From: a virus
Lineage: Duplodnaviria; Caudoviricetes
Direction: 5' to 3' (one strand)
IMG/VR virus record: IMGVR_UViG_3300009184_000003
Span: 1 to 62,278 of that record
Length of the DNA stretch: 62,278 bases
Position 1 is the first letter of the stretch, and each line of letters opens with the position of its first letter. The notes beneath the pieces are model-generated. The model ran no database searches. It was not told the DNA's origin and saw only the letters and a list, made by a program, of their open reading frames with translations. Of this stretch, positions 3,709 through 48,318 are shown piece by piece. A program made the position numbers and the translations under genes.

Positions 3709-6117
3709 ATGGGCGCCGAAAATACAAAAACTTTTGAAGTACCTCAGTCTGCTCCAATACAAGAACTTGACATAGAGGATAACCAAACGGAGTCTGCTCC
3801 TTATACCGGACCACGTTTGCGTGACTCCCGTGACATGGCCGCGTTTGGTGTTGGTACTGCTGCGGGTTTTCTTGCTGATTCTATGCAAAGACACGAAATA
3901 CAAAAAAGAATAAATGATGAAAACAAAACCCAAGCAGACGCTGCGTACATGGCGCAGATGCGTATGGAATTGCAGAGGATGCAAGACGCTGAATATCGAC
4001 GGCAGATTGATGCGCGTAATGAATTAATACGTCAACAACAAGCGCAATATCAACAAGAATTAGAAGCACACGCGCAAGCGGTAGCTGAGGCTAAAGCTAA
4101 TGAGCCTAAGCTATACGGCACAGGCACACAAAATTGGACAGACCAAGAGTACGCCGAGAAAATTGCTCGTCAAATCGATGACCCGCTCAGTAAGGGTATC
4201 GCTTCAAAAGAGGCAGAAAAAAGAATAGCCATGCAGTTAAAGGCGGAAGAGTTGTTCCCAAGTCAAGTGTTAGCAGGTAAAGGTTCGTTATTGACTATAC
4301 CGCTTATCCCTGGCGGTCAAACAGAAGTGCCAATGAGTATGCGTAAGGAAAAACCTGAACCGGCGCCGCTACCACCACCACCAAGTAAACCAGTGCCGCC
4401 ACCAATACCGCAACGAACTCCTATTCCTGAGCCACAACCGCGTGCGCAAGCACCTGAGCTTCCAAGTAAAATGCACTCAGCTGGAAGCGGTTTGATGGGT
4501 GGTTTGGCTGGTGCGGATTTGTTTGACGCATATCAAAATTTTAGACAAGGAAATATAAGAGAGGGTCTTACAAGTGCAGGCACAGGGCTCTCAGCTGCCG
4601 CCGCTTCGTACCTTAAAAATCCTAAACTTAGAGCACTCTTGGCGGCGCCCTCTATTTTGTCAAAAGGTTCTGGTTTGCTGGACTACTTTAGTGCTGGCCA
4701 ACCAGAACAGAAAAAAGCTGAAGGCGGGATGATCCACATGGCGGGTGGTGGTCTTGCACCACACGGTATGCGTCACAGTGGCGAGGGTGCAAAGGGTAAG
4801 GGCTACTTTGGCATGATGCCAAGCCAAGATATCGGCGAGGGTCCAGTGGACTACTCACTGGCAGCACAGCCACGTTCATCCGAGCTATCATTGGAGTCTG
4901 ATGGTATGGGCGAGTACCCCTCGTTAGTGCCAGGGTTGACTAAAGAAGAGATGGATTACATGCTGGCCGGTAACGAGCCAACTGAAAGCATTTTACAAAA
5001 AGCCAAAATGCACGCGATGATGCGTAAAAAAAAAGGCTTGAGCCCCTTCGCACAACCTGATGAGTTGCGTTATCCAGTGCCCAACTACGCAGCCGGAGGG
5101 CTATCTGTAGCTCAGAACGTAGCAAAGGCAGCAGCACCTAGAGCAAAAGCGGCGTACAAATATGGGTCTCAACAAGCAGGTAAATTATCTGACTGGGCTC
5201 AAAATTTTATGGATCAATACCTTGTCCCCACTCAAGCAGATCGTATGGGTGGTGTAGGCGGTCCTAGCTTTAGTGCTAATCAACTAGGCTTACCACAATA
5301 TGCTGATGTTGCTTGGGGTTCTGGTAAACAAGGAATTGCAACTGGTATCGCTAATTTAGCAAAAGATCCGCGTTTTGGGGGAACACAAGGGCAGATTTTT
5401 ACACCATTACTGGGTGAAGAAAGCCAACTCCGGTCAAATCAACTTGTATATGATAAGTTGATGAAGGAGTTTTATAAAAACCAAGGTAAGATGACGCCAG
5501 AGTTAATGGCTAAAATTAATTTATTTATGCAAGCCGGAGGCCCTAAAGCCAGCGGTGAATTGCGTTTTGCACCAATTGAAAAGTTTGACCTTTCTGATCA
5601 AGATATGATGAAAGAGTTGGGTAAAACATTTAAGTCACGTAGAGATATTGTTACACATGCATTGGGTGGTGAAGGCCTTGGAGGCAAGAAATCACAAATT
5701 ATCCCTTATGACGATATATTAAAATCAATGCAAGACCCATTTACTGTGGGTGCTCCTACATACGCATTAGGCCCTCGTGCATTTAGATTGAGTGGTAAAG
5801 TGGGACAAGAACCACGCCCTGATTTAAACAAAGCGTATCCATATATTCTACACGGCCAAGATATGAACGTGACATTCACACCAACACCAGCTGAGTTGGC
5901 GTTGATGGACTTTCAAAACCAATGGCGTAAACAAACAGGTAATACCATGCCATTAAAAAGTGGCGCATTACCACAAGCCCAGTATTATGAACTCACCGCA
6001 GGCTATAAACCGGAAGGTTCATCAGAGCGGGTATACCCAAGACAGAAAATAACTGAGGAATGGATTAAAGAGCTGCAACGTAGTGGTTTTGCGCAAGGTG
6101 GCCTGGCATCACTCTAA
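3709..6117 (+). CDS. Multi-module internal virion protein
   Basis: 802 aa; coiled coil, Pro-rich linker and modules separated by AEGG/MAGGG/YAAGG/FAQGG motifs. Confidence 0.6.
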   Translation: MGAENTKTFEVPQSAPIQELDIEDNQTESAPYTGPRLRDSRDMAAFGVGTAAGFLADSMQRHEIQKRINDENKTQADAAYMAQMRMELQRMQDAEYRRQIDARNELIRQQQAQYQQELEAHAQAVAEAKANEPKLYGTGTQNWTDQEYAEKIARQIDDPLSKGIASKEAEKRIAMQLKAEELFPSQVLAGKGSLLTIPLIPGGQTEVPMSMRKEKPEPAPLPPPPSKPVPPPIPQRTPIPEPQPRAQAPELPSKMHSAGSGLMGGLAGADLFDAYQNFRQGNIREGLTSAGTGLSAAAASYLKNPKLRALLAAPSILSKGSGLLDYFSAGQPEQKKAEGGMIHMAGGGLAPHGMRHSGEGAKGKGYFGMMPSQDIGEGPVDYSLAAQPRSSELSLESDGMGEYPSLVPGLTKEEMDYMLAGNEPTESILQKAKMHAMMRKKKGLSPFAQPDELRYPVPNYAAGGLSVAQNVAKAAAPRAKAAYKYGSQQAGKLSDWAQNFMDQYLVPTQADRMGGVGGPSFSANQLGLPQYADVAWGSGKQGIATGIANLAKDPRFGGTQGQIFTPLLGEESQLRSNQLVYDKLMKEFYKNQGKMTPELMAKINLFMQAGGPKASGELRFAPIEKFDLSDQDMMKELGKTFKSRRDIVTHALGGEGLGGKKSQIIPYDDILKSMQDPFTVGAPTYALGPRAFRLSGKVGQEPRPDLNKAYPYILHGQDMNVTFTPTPAELALMDFQNQWRKQTGNTMPLKSGALPQAQYYELTAGYKPEGSSERVYPRQKITEEWIKELQRSGFAQGGLASL

Positions 6118-6168: not shown

Positions 6169-8113
6169 ATTTGCGGTACCTTGTATCAATCCATGACTCA
6201 GCGGCAAGCGGAAAGTCAGGGGCCCAGTCAGGTGGTGTGGTTAAGAACTGCATCAAGAGGCTCTCAACCTCCTTGGCAAGCTCAACTCTGCTTAACGCCA
6301 GAATCTCATCATGCACAAGATTAATTATCGACACACCCTGACCCTCAAGCCTCAACGCGGGTTCGGCAAGAAAGTCCCTCGCGGTTCCTTGGACGGCACT
6401 CTGGAAAATGCTCGACCCAATCAGTTTGTTCCGCCCCCATTTACGGGTGAACGTGTTCTGACTGACGACGTAAACGACATCGGCGAGCTTACCCCATGGG
6501 GTGTACTCCTGCACGACCTCAGGACGCTGCCAACAGATTAGACGACCGCTAGGTAGCTGCATCCACAGCGCGTCGTTCGTCACCTTCAGCATGACCTTAC
6601 CCGCACGAAACGACTGGCCTGGGCTTCCAATTGCATCGATTGCAGCCTGACCCATCTGGTACCAACAATTCTTCACCTTGGCGTACGACATACGGTACGC
6701 GTTAACGGCCTCCTCGGCCTGCGCCGGTGACAAGACAACCCCCATACCATCGGCGTAGTCAACCAGGCCCTTGGCGCCTTGGCCAAACATGCAGCCCAGT
6801 ACGGCGGACTTGCTGACCTGACGCATGTCCTTGGTCACCTCCTCGTATGGAATCTTGTAGAGGCTGGTTGCTGCGAAGGTCTTGTACTCATCGAGCCCCT
6901 TCCTAAACAGCTCAACCTTGTCGTTCTGACCCGCTATCCACGACGCCACACGGTTCTCAATCGAGGACAGGTCGGCGTCCACAAAGGTAAACCCCTCGGG
7001 TGCCTTGATCGCGTTACGTACCACGGAAGAACATACGTCCATCGTCCTGTTACCGAAACGCTCTTTTAGCGACACGTAGTCGCCCTGAACCAGTCCTAGC
7101 TCAACGGTGTCGGCTATGTCTTCGTCCTTCATCCAGATAGCAGGGCGCGCGATGTTCTGCAGGTTGATCCCTCGACTGGCCCATCGCCCTGTAGAGGCTC
7201 CATGGTACACCAGACCGTTTCTAATGCGTCCCCCTACCTGTACCTCGGCCATCTTCGTAAACTTCGTCACGGACGTTTTAGCGCCTTCTGAACGCAGTTT
7301 CAGCACGGTGTCGATGTCCTTGTTGGCGTGCGTCTTCTTTGCCTCCTTCTCAATGGTCTCTGCCTGCATATTAGGCAGATCTAGCCCGTTGGCTTGGAAC
7401 CACTTTAGCAGCTGGTCGCGCTTGGTGACCTCGATGCCGCCGGTGATCTGCTTGATGTGCTCGTTGATGTGGTTTAGCTCCAAGTCAACGATACGGCAAA
7501 TGTTATCAAGCTCACGGGGATCCACTGGCACACCCCTCTGGTTGATCACCTGAGTCAATACCCATACCGCTTGCTCATGCTGAGTTAATTTACGCAGTCC
7601 CTGCACAATGGATATCTCTGTCTGCACGTCACGCTTGCAGTAGTCAAACATCTCAGCCAATAGCTCTGGGTCCTCGTTAAAGGTGCCGTCACGCTTGGGC
7701 TTAGAGAGTAACTGGATTAGCTTCTTGCCGCGCTTGTCTTTCTGGAACTCTGATCCAGTGACTTCGCCTGCCGTATCCAGGTCTTGGGGCAGGTTGTTGG
7801 CCGCGGCTATGGCCATCGAGTCAACCAACTGGGGCAGCCTCAACTGGGGCCAACCAAGGCAGCTGCCTACGTGATTCCATATGTGATACTCAAACGCCGC
7901 ATTCCATGCGGAGATTACGCCTTTATTCGCCGCATGATCTAATACCCAATTTGGGACGTTTTTGGGCGCCCAGACTCCGACATGCCCAGAATCGAAGCCT
8001 GCTGCGATACAAATTATTTCTGTGGAGTGGTCTCGTGCGTAAACATCAAGGCCGCGATCTTTCAGATCAATACGGCTACGTGTTTCAAAGTCGATGGAAA
8101 GTATTGTAGACAT
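6167..8113 (-). CDS. polA: Family A DNA polymerase with 3'-5' exonuclease domain
   Basis: IDFET ExoI, motif A DLSSIENR, motif B RQVSKSAVLGCMFG, motif C VHDE, ASTGRW. Confidence 0.95.
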   Translation of the reverse strand: MSTILSIDFETRSRIDLKDRGLDVYARDHSTEIICIAAGFDSGHVGVWAPKNVPNWVLDHAANKGVISAWNAAFEYHIWNHVGSCLGWPQLRLPQLVDSMAIAAANNLPQDLDTAGEVTGSEFQKDKRGKKLIQLLSKPKRDGTFNEDPELLAEMFDYCKRDVQTEISIVQGLRKLTQHEQAVWVLTQVINQRGVPVDPRELDNICRIVDLELNHINEHIKQITGGIEVTKRDQLLKWFQANGLDLPNMQAETIEKEAKKTHANKDIDTVLKLRSEGAKTSVTKFTKMAEVQVGGRIRNGLVYHGASTGRWASRGINLQNIARPAIWMKDEDIADTVELGLVQGDYVSLKERFGNRTMDVCSSVVRNAIKAPEGFTFVDADLSSIENRVASWIAGQNDKVELFRKGLDEYKTFAATSLYKIPYEEVTKDMRQVSKSAVLGCMFGQGAKGLVDYADGMGVVLSPAQAEEAVNAYRMSYAKVKNCWYQMGQAAIDAIGSPGQSFRAGKVMLKVTNDALWMQLPSGRLICWQRPEVVQEYTPWGKLADVVYVVSQNTFTRKWGRNKLIGSSIFQSAVQGTARDFLAEPALRLEGQGVSIINLVHDEILALSRVELAKEVESLLMQFLTTPPDWAPDFPLAAESWIDTRYRK

Positions 8114-13967: not shown

Positions 13968-14257
13968 AGCTTTAATTCCTTTCGTATGCGTTTGATTGCC
14001 TGCGCCCAGTGGTATCGCCAATACTTTTCAGTGACGGCTAAGTCTTTGTGTGTGTACCCCAGTAGGTGTGCCTCCACGATCTCTTGCTGCTGAGGTGTTA
14101 GCTTACTGGAGATAACATTGTAGACGTCTTGAACGGTATCAGGCCCCCACGGTGCCCAGTGTATCGCCGCCAGTGGTTCTACACTGGGGTCGTCACTCTC
14201 CATAGGATCAACTTCTTCATCAGACAACCGCCGAATCGTTGCGTTAAATTTTCTCAT
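13964..14257 (-). CDS. Stand-alone sigma70 region 4-like HTH protein
   Basis: KLTPQQQEIV...GYTHKDLAVTEKYWRYHWAQAIKRIRK aligns by eye with sigma region 4 (LT.RE..V...VTRERIRQIEAKALRKLR). Confidence 0.6.
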   Translation of the reverse strand: MRKFNATIRRLSDEEVDPMESDDPSVEPLAAIHWAPWGPDTVQDVYNVISSKLTPQQQEIVEAHLLGYTHKDLAVTEKYWRYHWAQAIKRIRKELKL

Positions 14258-15582
14258 TGCAATTTAAGCGCATTCATCAGCGCCTCCTGTGTGTCAATCT
14301 TTCCCTGCAGTACGTCCATCACCTGCGCGTCAATACTCTTGGCCATCGTTAAATGATGCACGATCACGGGTTTGGTTTGCCCCTGTCTAAACACCCTGGC
14401 GTTTGCCTGCAGGTAGTCTTCACCTGACCACGGCAAATCAAACCACACGATCTGCGCCGTATCACCCACGTTACACTGCAGGTTCAATCCGATGCCTACA
14501 CTCTTGGGGTGGCAGAGTAGTGTGCTGATCTTGCCCTCTCTCCATCCCCTGATAGTCGCCTCATCATCTGGATCGAGCACCACCGCATCAGGTAGCGCCT
14601 TCCTCAATCGATTGAGTGCGTGCTTGTAGTTGTAGAATATCAGCGTAGGTGTCTCATCTATCATGTCGAGCAAATAGTCCACCTTGTCTGTGTGGACCTC
14701 GGTGACTTTCTTTTCTTCATTATAAATTTCGCCTGACGTAATCTGCAGTAGCTTGTTGGTCAACACACCCGCTGTGACTGCCGTCACTGTGTCGCCCTTC
14801 ACCTCAGCCACCATGTCCTTCTTCATGCGCTTGTAGATATCTAAGGCCTTCTTACTCCATTCGATTTGGTGCGTGATGTCCTGACGTTCTGGCATCGTCA
14901 AGTAGTCATCAGCGCGCAAAGAAAAACAGACGTCAGATATCTTTGCATCAATTAATTCTTTTGCTCCATGTTTTAATTTCCAACTCCACACGACACCAGT
15001 GCGTCGATCCTTTTGATCTGGCTCAAAGTATTGATCTTTAAACTTCGTCATTGACGAACCAAGCCGATGGCCAAGATCGAGAATAGAAACTTGGGTCCAC
15101 AGGTCCAGATATGACTTGGGCGTGGGTGTTCCTGTCAAAATATACCGATGCTGAAAGTTTTTGAGCATACCCTTTAACGCCTTCCATCTTTTCGACGTTG
15201 GGTTCTTGAAGCGGCTGCTCTCGTCGATCACCAGAGTCGTCCACTGTGGTAGATTCGTCTGTCCCATTAGCCATACAACATTTTCCACATTCACGATGTA
15301 AACATCTGCAGGTGAGTGCAGTGCATCCATTCTTTCCTGCGGTGTGCCCACAATCAATGCAAACTTTAATTGGGTCGTGTGTTCCCATTGTTTAGCCTCC
15401 TGTCGCCATACGTTCTTCGCTACCGCCTTCGGGGCTATGATCAGCGTCTTGCCCTTGATGATGGTCAGCGTCGTGATTGTCTTTCCTAAACCCATGTCCA
15501 TCAGCAGGCCCATGTGCGGGATCTGCTTACTCTTTTCGATCAGTCTCCTCTGGTACTCGTGGAGATTCTCTAAACGCAACAT
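14254..15582 (-). CDS. SNF2-family (SF2) helicase
   Basis: LHEYQ, DMGLGKT, VIDESS, LTGTP, GLNLQ, QANARVFRQGQ. Confidence 0.92.
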   Translation of the reverse strand: MLRLENLHEYQRRLIEKSKQIPHMGLLMDMGLGKTITTLTIIKGKTLIIAPKAVAKNVWRQEAKQWEHTTQLKFALIVGTPQERMDALHSPADVYIVNVENVVWLMGQTNLPQWTTLVIDESSRFKNPTSKRWKALKGMLKNFQHRYILTGTPTPKSYLDLWTQVSILDLGHRLGSSMTKFKDQYFEPDQKDRRTGVVWSWKLKHGAKELIDAKISDVCFSLRADDYLTMPERQDITHQIEWSKKALDIYKRMKKDMVAEVKGDTVTAVTAGVLTNKLLQITSGEIYNEEKKVTEVHTDKVDYLLDMIDETPTLIFYNYKHALNRLRKALPDAVVLDPDDEATIRGWREGKISTLLCHPKSVGIGLNLQCNVGDTAQIVWFDLPWSGEDYLQANARVFRQGQTKPVIVHHLTMAKSIDAQVMDVLQGKIDTQEALMNALKLQ

Positions 15583-22346: not shown

Positions 22347-22533
22347 TTTGGTTCCTCGCTATCATCATGGCGTCAGCCGCCTCATAAGCGGCTTTTGCAT
22401 ACACCAGTACGTCTCTGTTCGGTATTGTGTCTGTGCTTAACAAGGCCTGCACTATTGCCGTGGCAAAGTAATCTCGCAGGTCCATGCCCTGTTGGTTTAG
22501 CCCCGTCATATTTGATAATGGAAATGCTTTCAT
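22333..22533 (-). CDS. Conserved phage protein (GMDLRDYFA family)
   Basis: AFP...GMDLRDYFA...AY..ADAM..AR. Confidence 0.75.
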   Translation of the reverse strand: MKAFPLSNMTGLNQQGMDLRDYFATAIVQALLSTDTIPNRDVLVYAKAAYEAADAMMIARNQNDTK

Positions 22534-22718
22534 AGCTCCCTCGCTTTCACTAGTGCCTCAAATGTGTGCCACATGCGCTTGAACTTGTAGTCGTACACTG
22601 ACGCCAGTGCATCAAGGTCGTCAACTGTCGTGCCCATCTCGTACATCACGTGGATGTCGTCCACGATCTGCCAACACTCTAACATCTGCTGCTCTAAGTC
22701 GAATCGGTCTGTTGTCAT
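22530..22718 (-). CDS. Hypothetical protein
   Basis: DRFDLEQQ...CW...DD motif. Confidence 0.65.
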   Translation of the reverse strand: MTTDRFDLEQQMLECWQIVDDIHVMYEMGTTVDDLDALASVYDYKFKRMWHTFEALVKAREL

Positions 22719-22760: not shown

Positions 22761-23024
22761 TTAATCATTCGCGTTCTTCTCCCGTAGCTTAGCTTCAATA
22801 TCTTCATAAATTGCCCTTCCTGAAAAGGCACCATGAAAATGAAAATCTGATATTTCTTGTATTTCTTCTGCTGTCAAACTTACCCACTTGGTGCGGTACC
22901 ACTCCTTCTCAGAGTATAGCAGTCTAATGGTGTGCGCGGCCATCTCCCTTGCTAATTTGGAAACGGCTCCAATGTCTTCAAGCTCGTCTGCTCGTCTCAG
23001 TGCTTCAGGCTGTTTGTCAGTCAT
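22761..23024 (-). CDS. Hypothetical protein
   Basis: QPEALR.AD.L...WV.LT.EEI...IEAKLREKN. Confidence 0.65.
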   Translation of the reverse strand: MTDKQPEALRRADELEDIGAVSKLAREMAAHTIRLLYSEKEWYRTKWVSLTAEEIQEISDFHFHGAFSGRAIYEDIEAKLREKNAND

Positions 23025-23556
23025 GGTGGTCTACCTCCTCGGCTAATCTGTCGTTGTTCAATGCATCTAGGCTGATTGGTTGGCGGTGGGATACCAGTAG
23101 CAAGTCGCGGACTTGCGTGTCAGACAGTCCAGAAGCCTCTACAAGCTCTTTTTGGGTGGGCTCCCTACCGAGGCCTTGGGTGAGCTTCGTTTTCGCCTTG
23201 TAGAGCCTCCTGATGCCTTCTTGGACGTTTACTGGGATGGCGATCAGGTGCTCTTGGTTCTCGATTGCGCGAAATACCTTGCTGTAGATCACGCCCCTTG
23301 CATATGTGGCAAGTCGATGTGTCGGCTTCCACGTCCTGATGGCGCCCATCAACGCGATGTTGGCCTCTTGTATCAGGTCCTCCCTGGTCATGGAACCGGA
23401 CAGGTTCCAGTGGGGGAGGCGCTTAACTATGTAGACGGCCAGTCCCAGGTTGGAGAGCACCAACTGCTCAAAGGCCTCCTCGTCACCGTGCTCGACCATC
23501 CTACGGTGTAGCTCCTTCTCTTCATCGAACGTCAATAGCGGTTGCTTTTTTGTCAT
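23017..23556 (-). CDS. Sigma70-family factor, regions 1.2-2-3 only (lacks region 4)
   Basis: PLLTFDEEKEL, LVLSNLGLAVYIVK, EDLIQEANIALM, IAIPV, LGREPTQKEL, ISLD, then stop 15 aa later. Confidence 0.88.
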   Translation of the reverse strand: MTKKQPLLTFDEEKELHRRMVEHGDEEAFEQLVLSNLGLAVYIVKRLPHWNLSGSMTREDLIQEANIALMGAIRTWKPTHRLATYARGVIYSKVFRAIENQEHLIAIPVNVQEGIRRLYKAKTKLTQGLGREPTQKELVEASGLSDTQVRDLLLVSHRQPISLDALNNDRLAEEVDHHD

Positions 23557-23610
23557 GTTTTATTCCAGTAGGCCTTTGTATATTTAAAAGGCTATGTTAA
23601 AAGGGTGTAC

Positions 23611-23755
23611 GGCTGTTCAGGTTGTCGGGGTATGTTCACTCTATTTTATATTTTTAATTTTAAAAAATAAAAAATAAAAAATAAATAGAATAGACCCCGA
23701 CAACCTGAACAGCCAGACAAAATCAATGACTTAGCTAACACTTTGTCAGGAACTT
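23611..23755. repeat. 145-bp element A: 21-bp perfect inverted arms around a 62-bp AT-rich core plus an IHF-like site; inverted copy at 28989-29133
   Basis: GGCTGTTCAGGTTGTCGGGGT (23611-23631) / ACCCCGACAACCTGAACAGCC (23694-23714); AATCAATGACTTA at 23721-23733. Confidence 0.92.
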
Positions 23756-27976: not shown

Positions 27977-28019
27977 GGTGATTCTCCTGTTTTGGTTGTG
28001 TTTGTGTGCCTTACATATA

Positions 28020-28041
28020 TATGGTCAAACGGCACCATTTA
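28020..28041 (-). promoter_or_regulatory. 22-bp early repeat copy 4
   Basis: Identical sequence. Confidence 0.75.
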
Positions 28042-28371
28042 GAACTTGATGAAGTAGGCAGGATCGAATCCGCCCCACTGCGCTGCGCGCTGTCCTACCA
28101 GTGCACCGACGCGCTGCTCTGGTGTGTAGACTGCTACGCAGTCCTGCTCCAGTATGTCGCTGATAGCAAGCGCTTCAGCATACACACGCTTCGGTGCTGT
28201 CTGGAACGCTGCGACAAGTGTCTGCTCTGTAGCTGACTGCTCGATCCTATACTCCACGAAGGCGAAGCGGCTGCGCAGTAGTACCAGTGCATACTCAGCG
28301 CGCGCTGTTAGCTGCTCTGGTGTGCTGGTTGTGTTGGGTACTTCTAAACCGATGTTAATTTGGTATTGCAT
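28039..28371 (-). CDS. Putative SAM lyase (T3 SAMase-like), first early gene
   Basis: TEQTLV and EQDCVAVY resemble T3 gp0.3 TEEKTV and EQDCVLVY as I recall them. Confidence 0.5.
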   Translation of the reverse strand: MQYQINIGLEVPNTTSTPEQLTARAEYALVLLRSRFAFVEYRIEQSATEQTLVAAFQTAPKRVYAEALAISDILEQDCVAVYTPEQRVGALVGQRAAQWGGFDPAYFIKF

Positions 28372-28408
28372 GGTGTGCTCCTAGGTTGTTTATCAGGTCT
28401 TACATATG

Positions 28409-28430
28409 TATGGTCAAACGGCACCATTTA
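28409..28430 (-). promoter_or_regulatory. 22-bp early repeat copy 5 (most upstream)
   Basis: Identical sequence; intergenic. Confidence 0.75.
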
Positions 28431-28527
28431 GCCTAGACACGATTCCACTGCTTAAAAATTAGGCAGTGCCGATTTTTTAGTATCTGAGCCCCCCACCACA
28501 CAGTCATATCGCGCACGCGTTGGTCTG

Positions 28528-28562
28528 CTAATGAGTCATAAGCCTGCGTTATGACTCATTAG
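28528..28562. repeat. Perfect 14-bp inverted repeat
   Basis: CTAATGAGTCATAA-N7-TTATGACTCATTAG. Confidence 0.9.
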
Positions 28563-28583
28563 TAATACAGTGACTCACCAGTC

Positions 28584-28820
28584 AGGCACGGTTCTTGCCT
28601 TAGCATATTGCGTGCCAGCCACCGCCCCAGTGAGTGCTCACTTCGCCAACTTGGTGCGCCCCAGTGAGTGCTCACTAACCTGGCCGGCCAAGCTGGCACA
28701 GATCTTGCTTCGAAGTGAGCGCTTACTTCGCCGGCTGCGTGGGCTCGGCACAGATCTTGCCTTAGCAAGAAGCGTGCCATGTTGGCAGGCATAAATCTTG
28801 CCTTAGCAAGTTCCGTGCCA
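28584..28820. promoter_or_regulatory. Array of seven sigma54 (-24/-12)-like boxes interleaved with AGTGAGYGCTYACT palindromes
   Basis: GGCAY-N5-TTGC at 28584, 28694, 28746, 28787 (+) and ending 28617, 28779, 28820 (-). Confidence 0.65.
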
Positions 28821-28988
28821 GACCGGCGGCTTGTTAATTAGGCAACACCCCGATTTGGGTCCCATCGGCGGGGCGGCTAGGGGGGCCCCCACAGAAAGCA
28901 AGTTTTTTACAAACGCCCAGTTTACAAAAAAGCACTTGCCTAATTTTTTTTTTATAATTTTTACAACACACTAAGTTGTTAATATGTT

Positions 28989-29133
28989 AAGTTCCTGACA
29001 AAAGTTGCGCTAAGTCCTTGATTTTGTCTGGCTGTTCAAGTTGTCGGGGTCTATTCTATTTATTTTATTTTTTTAATTCAACGCGAAAAAAATATCTATA
29101 AAGAGCAAACATACCCCGACAACCTGAACACCC
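28989..29133. repeat. 145-bp element B, inverted copy of 23611-23755
   Basis: Arms 29030-29050 / 29113-29133, 62-bp AT core, IHF-like TAAGTCCTTGATT at 29011-29023. Confidence 0.92.
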
Positions 29134-29210
29134 AGACTGTGCTTGGGTATATTTTGCTCTGGTTTGAAATAAATGCAATAGTTGGCGTCTAGCGTGAGTT
29201 ACTGCTATTT

Positions 29211-29237
29211 GGGCGTAATCGGGTGAATAAATGGGTA
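29211..29237 (+). promoter_or_regulatory. Putative late promoter GGGCG-N16-TGGGTA
   Basis: Motif recurs six times with exact spacing before late operons. Confidence 0.75.
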
Positions 29238-29250
29238 TATCAGATTACAC

Positions 29251-30138
29251 ATGGGAATAGACGCGCGACTCCCATTGCCTACGACAGCCGGATGGCTGCC
29301 AGCTGGACAACTCCAGGCAGGCGATGTGGTATTCAGTTACACAGGGTATCCAGTTAAGGTCGTTTCGATCCAGAGATATACGCCGGCGGCGTGTTATAAG
29401 ATCTGGCTCAAAGACGGGCTGACACTGGTGGTAGACGCACGCACTGGAATTCCTGTGTTTGACCGCAAGGCTAGGAACCAGCTGCATTTGTGGACGCGCA
29501 CCACTTACCGCCACGAAGACTCGTATGTCCAACCACTAAGTCCTGAGGCCATCCTCACATGGGAATTTGGTTGGTGCAGGATCCCAGTCTGCCAACCGCT
29601 ACGACCCCCGCACAGAAGCCTACCCGTTGAGCCGTATGAGTTTGCGCGCTGGATGTTTGACCGCAGCGAGAAACGCCGGCGCAATCGAACTGACATCACC
29701 CGCGAACTGATCGAGCGGTATCCTACCATTCCAACCCACATACCCGAAGAGTATTTGTTTGCGTCGTTTGAACAACGACTGGCGTTCTTGCGCGGTATCC
29801 TGAGCGTTAGAACCAAGGCCTTTAGCAAAAGCAATTGTCTTTTCAAAATAGATGTGGCCGACAGGCGGCTGGCTCGGCAAATACAGGGGCTGGTCGAATC
29901 GTTTGGGATTAAGACGTACATTGTCAACGCAAGAACAAACTACCGGTTTAGGGTTTGTTTCAAAACCATACTGCGGCTGTGCGAGGACCAAGACATCCCT
30001 AAGAATGTTAACGAGCTGGAATATCGGCGGATTATGCAAATTGAAAAGATAGCACCAAGAGAGTGCGTGTACATTAAAACGGATGACCCCAACAACACAA
30101 TTTTGGTAAGCGAAGGCTACCTAGGAGTTTCATTATGA
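29251..30138 (+). CDS. Free-standing degenerate intein-like protein (Hint plus LAGLIDADG-type region)
   Basis: LPT..GW...GQLQAGDVVF...G.PVKV block A; EQRLAFLRGI, LARQIQGLVESFG endonuclease blocks; RRI..IEKI...CV.I block F; lacks Cys1 and the terminal His-Asn. Confidence 0.75.
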   Translation: MGIDARLPLPTTAGWLPAGQLQAGDVVFSYTGYPVKVVSIQRYTPAACYKIWLKDGLTLVVDARTGIPVFDRKARNQLHLWTRTTYRHEDSYVQPLSPEAILTWEFGWCRIPVCQPLRPPHRSLPVEPYEFARWMFDRSEKRRRNRTDITRELIERYPTIPTHIPEEYLFASFEQRLAFLRGILSVRTKAFSKSNCLFKIDVADRRLARQIQGLVESFGIKTYIVNARTNYRFRVCFKTILRLCEDQDIPKNVNELEYRRIMQIEKIAPRECVYIKTDDPNNTILVSEGYLGVSL

Positions 30139-31574
30139 CCCCAAACCAAGAGAAGATACTTAAAGAGTTTGCCGAGAAAAATAAGGGCTGGCCTAAGGAG
30201 GCCCTTGACCAAGCCCTATGGAAAGTGCGATGGGCGTTGTCTGCACTACCCCACCAGCAAGAACCAGAGGACGGCGAGTACGACACCTTCTTGCTACTGG
30301 CGGGTCGTGGATCTGGCAAGACGCACACCGCGTCGAATTGGATTGGGTTGCGCGCGGCGGAGTTTCCTAGAACCCGTTGGTTGGTGACGGCGCCAACGTC
30401 AAACGACATCCGAGCCACCTGCTTTGAGGGCGACTCAGGGTTGTTGAATATCATTCCGGCGTCACTGATCAAGGACTACAACAAGTCGCTGTTTGAGTTG
30501 ACGTTGAAAAATGGCTCGTTGATCCGCGGCATCCCTGCCTCAGAGCCAGAGCGTTTCCGTGGTACCCAGTGGCATGGTTGCTGGATGGACGAGTTGTGTG
30601 CGTTCGAATACATTGACGACGCGTATGATCAGATTCAGTTTACGTTGCGTTTGACAGACCCGCGTATTCCGCGTGTTCAGAGCATTATAACCACCACGCC
30701 AAAACCGCTGGAGCTCATCACTGACCTGAATGAGGGAAAAATTGGTGGCGACGTGTACGTATCGCGTGCTTCGTCATACGACAACAGGAAAAATCTTTCT
30801 GGAACCTTCTTTAAACAGCTCGAAGCCTATGAAGGCACAGATTTAGGCAGGCAAGAGATCTACGGCGAGATCTTGGATCCTGAGAATGCGGGTATTGTGA
30901 AGCGAAAATGGTTCCGCATGTGGCCGTCAAAGAAAGAAACGCCGACGTTGGAGTACGTTTTGGCCTCATATGACCCAGCAACGAGCGAAAAAACGCACAA
31001 TGACCCCACCGCGTGCGTAGTTTTGGGTGTTTTTGATCGAGAAGACGCTGGAACGTGCTGTATTTTGCTAGATTCTTGGGATGATCACCTGTCTTACCCA
31101 GAATTACGCCGAAAAGTACGCGATGATTACCGCGAGGTGGTGTACGGTGCCGATAATACGTTCGCAAAAGGCAAAAAAGCCGACTTAATTTTGATGGAAG
31201 ACAAGTCGGCGGGTATTTCGTTGATCCAAGAGCTGCAAGGCGCTGGTTTACCAGTCAGAAGCTACAACCCAGGGCGTGCTGACAAGGTGCAGCGTATGAA
31301 TATTGTGGCTCCGTTGATTGCCAAGGGTAAGGTGTTTGTACCAGAAGACCCTAACGCACCTGGAGAGGTGGCACCGTGGGCCAAGCGGTTCATTCGTCAG
31401 GTGTGTTCGTTCCCAGAAGCCAAAGGACACGACGACTACGTGGACGCACTGTCTCAAGCGTTGCGTGTGTTGCGTGACTCAGGGTGGCTGCAACTGGATC
31501 CGTTACCGGATCGAGACCACGACCACTCAGACGACATTGCAAAGCGTAAGGTGTACAACCCCTACGCCGCGTAA
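30135..31574 (+). CDS. terL: Terminase large subunit
   Basis: AGRGSGKT Walker A, WMDE Walker B, TTTP, YDPA, EDKSAG, HDDYVDA. Confidence 0.95.
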   Translation: MTPNQEKILKEFAEKNKGWPKEALDQALWKVRWALSALPHQQEPEDGEYDTFLLLAGRGSGKTHTASNWIGLRAAEFPRTRWLVTAPTSNDIRATCFEGDSGLLNIIPASLIKDYNKSLFELTLKNGSLIRGIPASEPERFRGTQWHGCWMDELCAFEYIDDAYDQIQFTLRLTDPRIPRVQSIITTTPKPLELITDLNEGKIGGDVYVSRASSYDNRKNLSGTFFKQLEAYEGTDLGRQEIYGEILDPENAGIVKRKWFRMWPSKKETPTLEYVLASYDPATSEKTHNDPTACVVLGVFDREDAGTCCILLDSWDDHLSYPELRRKVRDDYREVVYGADNTFAKGKKADLILMEDKSAGISLIQELQGAGLPVRSYNPGRADKVQRMNIVAPLIAKGKVFVPEDPNAPGEVAPWAKRFIRQVCSFPEAKGHDDYVDALSQALRVLRDSGWLQLDPLPDRDHDHSDDIAKRKVYNPYAA

Positions 31575-47774: not shown

Positions 47775-48318
47775 GACTCTCCTGACGCTGGTGTTGATGG
47801 GCTGTTGTAGCGTTATAACAGACCCCCCAGTAGGCAAACAGGAGATTGAGGTAGGACCCAAGGCACACGCGCTGATACAGCGGTTTGAGGGCTTTTCGTC
47901 CGTGGCGTACCCAGATGCAATTACTGGCGGCGCTCCTTGGACGTATGGGTACGGTTTTACGACTCGCGCGAATGGCAGCCCTGTGCAACCTGGTGACACA
48001 ATACCCAGAAAAGAAGCCGACGCACGATTAGCCAAAGAAGCGCAAAAGTATTGTGGCCACGTACTAAAGCGAGTGCCTAAAAAATACGCAACACAGAATC
48101 GAATAGACGCCGCTGCAAGCCTCTGCTGGAACATCGGGGTGCCTAACCTGCAGCGCAGTGTGTTTTTAAAGAAGTGGATCGCAGGCGATATCAATGGCGC
48201 CGCCAAGGCGATGCACTCGTGGGTGTGTTCAGGCACCCCAGTAGAGAAAGTTTTGAGGGCCAGACGTCGGGTTGAGTCTGCCCTTTTTCAGGGCGAAAGA
48301 CCTTATTTTGATGGGTAA
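47746..48318 (+). CDS. GH24 lysozyme with an N-terminal signal/lipobox-like segment
   Basis: FEG......D....WTYGYG, WNIG, RRRVES; MTRLTRLISKTLLTLVLMGC leader. Confidence 0.8.
   Translation: MTRLTRLISKTLLTLVLMGCCSVITDPPVGKQEIEVGPKAHALIQRFEGFSSVAYPDAITGGAPWTYGYGFTTRANGSPVQPGDTIPRKEADARLAKEAQKYCGHVLKRVPKKYATQNRIDAAASLCWNIGVPNLQRSVFLKKWIAGDINGAAKAMHSWVCSGTPVEKVLRARRRVESALFQGERPYFDG
48291..48317 (+). promoter_or_regulatory. Putative late promoter GGGCG-N16-TGGGTA
   Basis: Exact motif within the 3' end of the lysozyme gene. Confidence 0.7.

Follow-up and report, generated by a model that had tools for sequence, protein, structure and literature searches.

A clustered array of sigma-54-type boxes in the divergent control region of an uncultured freshwater phage, with counterparts in otherwise dissimilar phages

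Genome organization and the control region

The window, i.e. the whole stretch of DNA analysed here, is a complete virus record of 62,278 bp with a GC content of 49%, a circular-type assembly with direct terminal repeats that is rated 100% complete. Its DNA is present in freshwater metagenomes from 14 studies, in every case as contigs and with no RNA run among those listed, and the nearest cultured relatives by terminase infect Proteobacteria, which is only a weak hint on the host. An 880-bp intergenic gap separates a leftward early/replication block (genes from 28371 to 6167) from a rightward terminase/structural block and is the site of the array described below. The leftward block encodes a DNA polymerase A, a ribonucleotide reductase, an Enc34-type single-strand binding protein and a DUF2800 nuclease, as well as a SNF2 helicase, a D5-type primase-helicase and a sigma-70-family protein, and the rightward block, which starts at 29251, encodes a Hint/LAGLIDADG-like ORF, the large terminase subunit, a 923-aa protein and the portal. 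Positions 28000-30200 show no DNA similarity to deposited phages, and a comparison of 28520-28900 with the same phages gave a single 36-nt match, which is at chance level. The features of the gap and the genes on either side are as follows.

28039..28371, minus strand: first leftward gene, 110 aa, phrog_11722, no assigned function
28408..28417, minus strand: copy of the early promoter-like repeat TGCCGTTTGACCATAY, separating the array from the first leftward gene
28528..28562: perfect inverted repeat at the module's left edge, with 14-nt arms and a gap of 7 nt
28585..28598, plus strand: left member of face-to-face pair 1, a -24/-12 type box, AGGCACGGTTCTTGCC
28603..28616, minus strand: right member of pair 1, also a -24/-12 type box, CTGGCACGCAATATGCT, with ATGC and not TTGC at its -12 end
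28629..28642: palindrome 1, AGTGAGTGCTCACT, centred 19.5 bp upstream of the GG in leftward box 28603-28616
28663..28676: palindrome 2, AGTGAGTGCTCACT, centred 25.5 bp upstream of the lone box that points rightward
28694..28710, plus strand: lone full-consensus box, CTGGCACAGATCTTGCT, aimed at the terminase side
28714..28727: palindrome 3, AGTGAGCGCTTACT, its centre 26.5 bp upstream of box 28747
28747..28778: face-to-face pair 2, plus-strand box 28747-28760 and minus-strand box 28765-28778 (ATGGCACGCTTCTTGCT)
28788..28819: pair 3, plus-strand box 28788-28801 (GGCAT) and minus-strand box 28806-28819 (CTGGCACGGAACTTGCT)
28866..28893: G/C-rich motif GGGGGGCCCCC (GGGG..CCCC), then CAAGTTTTT
28900..29150: A/T-rich stretch between the array and the first rightward gene
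29026-29055 / 29108-29137: 30-nt inverted repeat in the A/T-rich stretch, 87% complementary, with a 52-nt very A/T-rich loop
29130-29148, plus strand: terminator-like hairpin, located at the right arm of the 30-nt inverted repeat
29251..30138, plus strand: first rightward gene, Hint (intein-like) and weak LAGLIDADG-like protein
30135..31574, plus strand: large terminase subunit (Terminase_6N and Terminase_6C)

No small terminase is recognisable in the window, and the usual position of its gene is taken by the Hint/LAGLIDADG-like gene (29251-30138). Residues 7-68 of the product of this gene match DnaB mini-intein chains (E 3e-5), and its stop codon overlaps the terminase start in a different frame. 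The arrangement of Hint gene and terminase is kept in 18 loci.

Boxes and palindromes of the array

A scan of both strands for GGCAC-N5-TTGC with at most one mismatch gave 33 matches in the 62,278-bp genome, seven of which fall within 28585-28819 (starts at 28585, 28695, 28747 and 28788 on the plus strand and at 28603, 28765 and 28806 on the minus strand). Exact GGCA[CT]-N5-TTGC sites number nine genome-wide, six of them in the array, and the alternative spacers N3, N4, N6 and N7 gave no site there, the GG and GC dinucleotides of the array boxes being held at the fixed 10-bp spacing. The arrangement reported in the first-pass annotation, with seven boxes in three face-to-face pairs plus a lone box, interleaved with three 14-bp palindromes, was found again at 28585-28819. 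Its positions for the first two palindromes (28629 and 28663) stand, and the third starts at 28714 instead of 28713; all three are of AGTGAGYGCTYACT type. The face-to-face units are 36 nt each with a CTTA centre and start at 28583, 28745 and 28786. In pair 2 the 4 bp of CTTA separate the -12 ends, and pair 3 follows pair 2 at 41 bp. The best fit to sigma-54 sites is shown by the three minus-strand boxes and the lone plus-strand box, while the three paired plus-strand boxes have A or C in place of the consensus T before GG.

Clustering of this kind is far above chance. Among 300 genomes simulated with a first-order Markov model the largest cluster was three boxes per 240 bp, against the seven observed, and the Poisson probability of at least seven boxes in one 236-bp window, with the rate taken from the rest of the genome, is 1.7e-11. 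In the close relative L026 there are four mismatches in 28641-28821, of which two lie in N5 segments (25 positions) and two in other spacer (81 positions), with none in the box cores (45 positions) or palindromes (30 positions), numbers too small for a standalone test. They agree with the logo obtained from other phages (see below) and with the earlier statement that the N5 spacers vary while the boxes are conserved.

Elements around the array and the question of a genome end

At the left edge of the module, relatives have a palindrome, AATGAGAAT..ATTCTCATT, that is similar to the inverted repeat at 28528-28562. Its 19-bp form, AATGAGAAT-C-ATTCTCATT, adjoins arrays in two unrelated groups (L007 2787-2805; L011 about 885-905; L047 about 6645-6665; cf. 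28528-28562 in the window) and presumably resembles the Fur-box class. On the other side, the G/C-rich motif with CAAGTTTTT is kept in the relatives L009 (about 4560-4640), L038 (about 14230-14290), L011 (about 570-630) and L026, and in loci L004 and L051 the G-rich stretch is another one, which includes a TTATCCACA sequence. The RNA fold of the motif at 28866-28893 is no better than that of shuffles. Nothing above threshold was found for known RNA families and tRNAs in the array region, and the 30-nt inverted repeat at 29026-29137 gave only sub-threshold Rfam matches, to miRNA precursors.

The array had also been placed next to the probable genome end. This placement was not supported: the assembly is of circular type with direct terminal repeats, and Logan contigs from three public runs, two of them viral metagenomes, bridge 28866-28893 with no ends seen, although contigs as such cannot exclude an end. 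Apart from one contig oddity, no joints were found at the array in these contigs.

Recurrence of the array in other uncultured phages

Viral contigs were scanned with two exact patterns, one with the window's own centre (51 loci) and one with the centre and N5 left free (95 stretches), which combine to 126 loci or, with the window, 127 sources. Defining an array as at least three boxes per 400 bp, we found arrays of up to ten boxes in 78 of the 126 loci (79 of 127 with the window). By shared ORFs within 4 kb the 79 arrays fall into 21 groups, namely one of 40 loci that includes the window, one of 18, one of three and 18 singletons, and no ORF within that distance is common to different groups. 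The first-pass annotation had named conservation across related phages as a check; comparable arrays are present at 78 other loci, across groups without a shared neighbouring gene.

The array is usually a single feature of its genome. When nine genomes (G001-G005 and G411-G415) were scanned whole with the strict pattern, eight had one array each, accompanied by no more than three stray boxes in the few kb around it, and the reversed-pattern control gave 0-1 matches. G001 has one stray box about 50 kb from its array, and G004 has one strict match, with three boxes at the locus under a looser pattern.

The carriers have little else in common. We compared the proteins of the window and of G002, G411 and G412 (blastp E <= 1e-3), genomes with GC contents of 49%, 40%, 57% and 63%, respectively, of which G002 is 92% complete and the other three are complete. 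No ORF family is common to all four at this threshold, and DNA polymerase A is the sole family found in three of them; G002, with the same boxes, has no homologue of the window's D5-type primase-helicase. Between the window's group and the second large group, represented by L007, there were no cross-group protein matches except two weak ones, one of them inside repeats.

Two candidates for a common phage-encoded factor were considered and set aside. As to a shared neighbour gene as the source of the binder, only the terminase large subunit and GcrA-like DNA-binding proteins recur among 96 flanking ORFs. The other candidate, a 62-aa acidic protein (window 22530-22718, minus strand; G001 23417-23620; G002 81957-82160), is found in G001 and G002, with a weak partial match in G004 and none in G003 and G005. 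It has no family match, is one of very few genes common to the window and the L007-group phages, and is 48% identical between the window and these otherwise unrelated 66-98-kb phages.

Outside this set, no arrays were found in the deposited genomes MW202545, Caulobacter phage RW and YuA, or near the terminase gene of MEP301, BcepC6B and Cronobacter phage Ss1, and we found no account of clustered or face-to-face sigma-54 boxes in phages in the literature.

Sigma-54 character of the boxes

The searches fixed only GGCA(C/T) and TTGC, and the other positions of a logo made from 244 distinct array boxes of viral contigs were free to vary. At these positions T directly precedes GG in 88% of boxes, with C or T one base further upstream in 85%; GGCAC is followed by G (73%) or A (24%), the bases before TTGC are T-rich, and TTGC is followed by A or T in 76% and by G in 1%. 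PMC2831329 quotes the extended sigma-54 consensus as TGGcacg-N4-5-tGCtat and TGGca-N4-5-ttGCaa, and the free positions match it, which upholds the original assignment of the boxes to the sigma-54 type.

The two halves of a pair are 3, 4, 5, 7 or 8 bp apart (both searches favoured 4), and boxes also occur head-to-tail at 18 bp. Each box therefore appears to act as its own unit and not as half of a rigid dimer site. Because the same motif occurs in genomes that have no protein family in common, the binder is more simply accounted for by a host factor whose specificity is conserved, and a phage-encoded binder is disfavoured, as it would need a constant DNA specificity despite the loss of all detectable similarity. 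The array is thus probably bound by a conserved host factor. Sigma-54 is the host factor that best fits the box sequence, although related loci are not independent, and on this basis we consider it likely to be the binder.

Neither of the sigma-54 domains PF04552 and PF04963 has a match in the window. The earlier remark that the phage has no enhancer-binding ATPase also stands, as PF00158 has no match in the window even at E <= 1, and this family is likewise absent from G001-G005.

Position and direction relative to the genes

In all 27 loci with a terminase within 4 kb (the window included) the array lies upstream of the window-family terminase large subunit, at a distance of 923-2263 bp. The array region is typically divergent, with small genes leading away on the side opposite the terminase. 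In G411, whose terminase is not blast-similar to that of the window, the array is about 1.2 kb upstream of the terminase, and in G412 it is upstream of a portal-containing operon. When the window is compared with the L004 type, the product of the gene that separates array and terminase has no more than 25% identity, the terminase has 78%, and the boxes are the same.

Boxes with the maximal consensus score aim toward the terminase gene in 34 cases and away from it in 15, the related loci among them not being independent. Unlike most relatives, the window and its closest kin L026 and L009 have their better paired boxes aimed at the early genes, and the lone box (28694 in the window) is the only full-consensus box that they aim at the terminase. 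In these three the G/C-rich motif is on the terminase side, and the whole module is reversed in the L004/L051 type.

In the L007 group the array lies between two genes for GcrA-like helix-turn-helix proteins (PF07750), one of which scores above the cut-off, and most boxes are antisense to neighbouring genes, pointing into the 3' end of a real gene. The two genes are at 2041-2349 and 3020-3379 in L007, and the layout is the same in L017, L022, L028, L032, L040 and L042. A strong leftward terminator closes the upstream gene just before the array in this group.

AGT(G/A)AG..CTCACT palindromes are present in both the window's group and the L007 group, and their centres are usually 17.5-26.5 bp from the GG of the box that is aimed away from the palindrome. 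This would place them about 42-51 bp before the expected start of transcription. The palindrome was also considered as the site of a host regulon and rejected: matches occur in 4 of 401 sampled Pseudomonadota genomes, compared to 4 for the reversed control, so that no host enhancer regulon was found.

Other promoter-like motifs and the phage sigma factor

The window phage may have other means of transcribing both gene blocks, as judged from the following features.

24340, 25523, 26993, 28028 and 28417, minus strand: the early promoter-like repeat TGCCGTTTGACCATAY, in five copies that are nearly identical
31596, 37377 and 41206, plus strand: motif (A/G)TGGGTACTTA, in three late intergenic gaps
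23017-23556, minus strand: sigma-70-family protein, 179 aa, regions 2 and 3 only, region 4 not detected

The five copies of TGCCGTTTGACCATAY lie about 40-55 nt ahead of the start codons of small leftward genes and are probably early promoters of the phage; the TTGACCATAC core of the repeat is kept in L038 and L009. The motif (A/G)TGGGTACTTA is a candidate late promoter for the phage-encoded sigma factor, with the reservation that its total count is not above chance and that its intergenic placement alone is suggestive. Weaker copies are found at 48311 and 59802, and homologues of the sigma-70-family protein in L004, L038, L048 and L053. With an early repeat, a late motif and a sigma-70-family factor of its own, the phage has neither gene block in obvious dependence on the array boxes, and this weakens a simple reading of the boxes as late promoters in the window phage.

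Possible functions of the array

Unless they are opened by an ATP-driven activator, sigma-54 promoters remain silent. Our leading explanation, a distinct possibility that we put forward tentatively, is that the array is a sigma-54 control hub, most likely an enhancer-dependent promoter fired by a host activator or by an unrecognised phage factor; here we infer sigma-54 binding, transcription starts at the boxes and the identity of the activator. Such a hub would offer host sigma-54 RNA polymerase seven -24/-12-class sites in the single 880-bp divergent control region. With the -12 ends 4 bp apart, a polymerase bound one way would cover the opposing box, so that each pair would hold one polymerase at once, in either direction. 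The three 14-bp palindromes would be operators for another protein, their centres 19-27 bp upstream of a box's GG, and the module would be kept tightly off and then turned strongly on, with the best boxes aimed at the terminase/structural operon in most relatives.

The constant place of the array at the head of the packaging/structural operon favours a promoter hub, as do the preferred direction of the best boxes, the likeness of the palindromes to operators and the precedent of Pseudomonas phage YuA. Against it stand the absence of PF00158 from all six genomes, the aim of the window's best-consensus paired boxes away from the terminase gene, the terminator-like hairpin between the array and the first rightward gene, and the antisense boxes of the L007 group. 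Since the face-to-face pairs and the 18-bp tandem boxes overlap, not all boxes can be independent promoters.

Phage use of sigma-54 promoters is, to our knowledge, rarely reported, and YuA is the one studied case that we know of. YuA is described as sigma-70- and sigma-54-dependent in PMC10914365. Its record (NC_010116) has three annotated -24/-12 promoters in the structural region, and in both YuA and the window phage sigma-54-type sites lie in or before the structural genes of a lytic phage. The promoters of YuA are single and dispersed inside the late region, however, whereas the boxes of the window are all in one array, and an exact GGCAY-N5-TTGC scan of YuA gave no site and no cluster. 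With bacterial sigma-54 promoters (glnAp2/NtrC, nifH/NifA and pspA/PspF) the arrays share the GG and GC 10 bp apart, the extended consensus and the upstream palindromes. Such promoters include divergent pairs that share one enhancer, but the array boxes are face-to-face or overlapping and not back-to-back, and the array phages examined (the window and G001-G005) encode no AAA+ activator. The array palindromes, at about 42-51 bp from the expected start, would also be nearer than looping enhancers, which usually sit farther upstream. The coliphage 186 promoters pR and pL are face-to-face sigma-70 promoters tens of bp apart, and they resemble the pairs in being opposed, with the use of one interfering with the other; in the arrays, by contrast, only 4 bp separate one -12 end from the other, and two to four copies of the unit are present.

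If the promoter hub is real, it is possible that host sigma-54 and its signal-sensing activators gate the late programme of many environmental phages, and the timing of lysis would then be tied to host physiology. Alternatively, the phages may exploit the stable closed complex or a novel activator in some as yet undescribed manner. The element, which is short, can be synthesised, and standard sigma-54 reagents are applicable though the hosts are uncultured.

A more radical variant, which we regard as improbable, is that a small phage protein bound to the AGTGAG..CTCACT palindromes about 45 bp upstream opens or re-programmes the sigma-54 polymerase without an AAA+ enhancer-binding protein. Were this true, sigma-54 would, contrary to the rule, not depend on an ATP-driven activator in every case, and the face-to-face pairs would let one factor choose the direction of transcription, early or late. 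A 2026 preprint on the phage protein Htm describes a T4-like phage protein that resembles activators and does not concern box arrays.

Closed sigma-54 complexes are stable as well as silent, and the boxes might instead be docking or decoy sites, as the first-pass annotation proposed, occupied by sigma-54 polymerase or free sigma-54 in a stable closed complex from which transcription is never fired. This complex could soak up host sigma-54 like a sponge, separate the gene blocks as a roadblock or insulator, or be a protein landmark in packaging or DNA entry. We consider docking rather unlikely, although the boxes and their conservation speak for it just as they do for a promoter hub, and several observations suit it well: the failure to find an activator in six phage genomes, the overlapping face-to-face and 18-bp tandem packing, which adds occupancy and not promoter number, the single array in eight of nine genomes scanned whole, the flipping of the module relative to the flanking genes among relatives as though direction were irrelevant, and the antisense boxes of the L007 group. 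The bias of the top-scoring boxes to the terminase operon (34 vs. 15) is harder to accommodate, as is the constant place at its head, which suggests that direction matters, and the palindromes, which have a consistent polarity and a narrow range of distances from the boxes, resemble the operators of operator-promoter units. Furthermore, the benefit of titrating sigma-54 is not evident from the genome, and no genome end was seen adjoining the array.

A third explanation, which appears unlikely to us, takes the likeness to sigma-54 sites as superficial and makes the boxes and palindromes replication-origin iterons, multimer-resolution sites or a pac/cos recognition region, whose binder would be either phage-encoded or a host protein different from sigma-54. 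The anatomy is suggestive of this, as the repeats are dyad-symmetric, are set in a 41-bp register and lie beside an A/T-rich stretch with a long inverted repeat, and the cumulative GC-skew minimum of the window falls within the array region. A DnaA-box-like TTATCCACA adjoins the L004 array, the array is confined to a single site in most genomes scanned, it lies upstream of the terminase gene wherever that gene is near (27 of 27 loci; also in G411), as a cos or pac region would, and the window has no recognisable small terminase. In having several short sites in both orientations at one locus per genome, adjoining terminase genes or an A/T-rich stretch, the arrays resemble the R sites of lambda cosB and the ori/crr repeats of P4. 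The lambda and P4 sites are each recognised by a protein of the phage itself, whereas the array motif is identical across phages without shared proteins and equals the sigma-54 consensus. The same nine fixed bases with sigma-54-type flanks recur in 21 groups that share no neighbour gene, and the identical motif occurs in four genomes that share no protein family; we know of no phage-specific initiators or small terminases that keep a single specificity across such distances. Nor do the sites co-vary with a phage-specific small terminase, as shown by the comparison of the window with L004, in which the gene between array and terminase has diverged far more than the terminase and the boxes have stayed the same. 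In addition, the intergenic region of the window has no DnaA-box-like site, its 31 small early ORFs contain no recombinase or other Pfam family, and the variable gap of the pairs (3, 4, 5, 7 or 8 bp) fits two independent sites better than a rigid dimer.

RNA hairpins, terminators or a chance cluster are extremely improbable, since the two halves of a pair in phage arrays have N5 segments without complementarity, the array region has no Rfam match above threshold, the adjacent stretch folds no better than shuffles and simulated genomes reached three boxes at most, even though the 32-nt pattern is mostly a perfect hairpin where it occurs in bacterial genomes.

In one genome per bacterial species, this 32-nt pattern was found at 53 loci, 52 of which have the pair only, and L063 alone has five boxes. 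The bacterial pairs are thus isolated and mostly form perfect hairpins without extra boxes nearby, in contrast to the phage pairs, which stand in arrays, and the hairpin repeats are unrelated to the phage arrays. Some of them are multi-copy repeats, with near-perfect hairpins in Leptospira (L056, L066, L077, L079, L085, L088 and L098), in one Verrucomicrobia MAG (L060, L062, L072, L104, L106 and L107) and in Oscillospiraceae MAGs (L071, L074, L075, L082, L086, L091 and L097).
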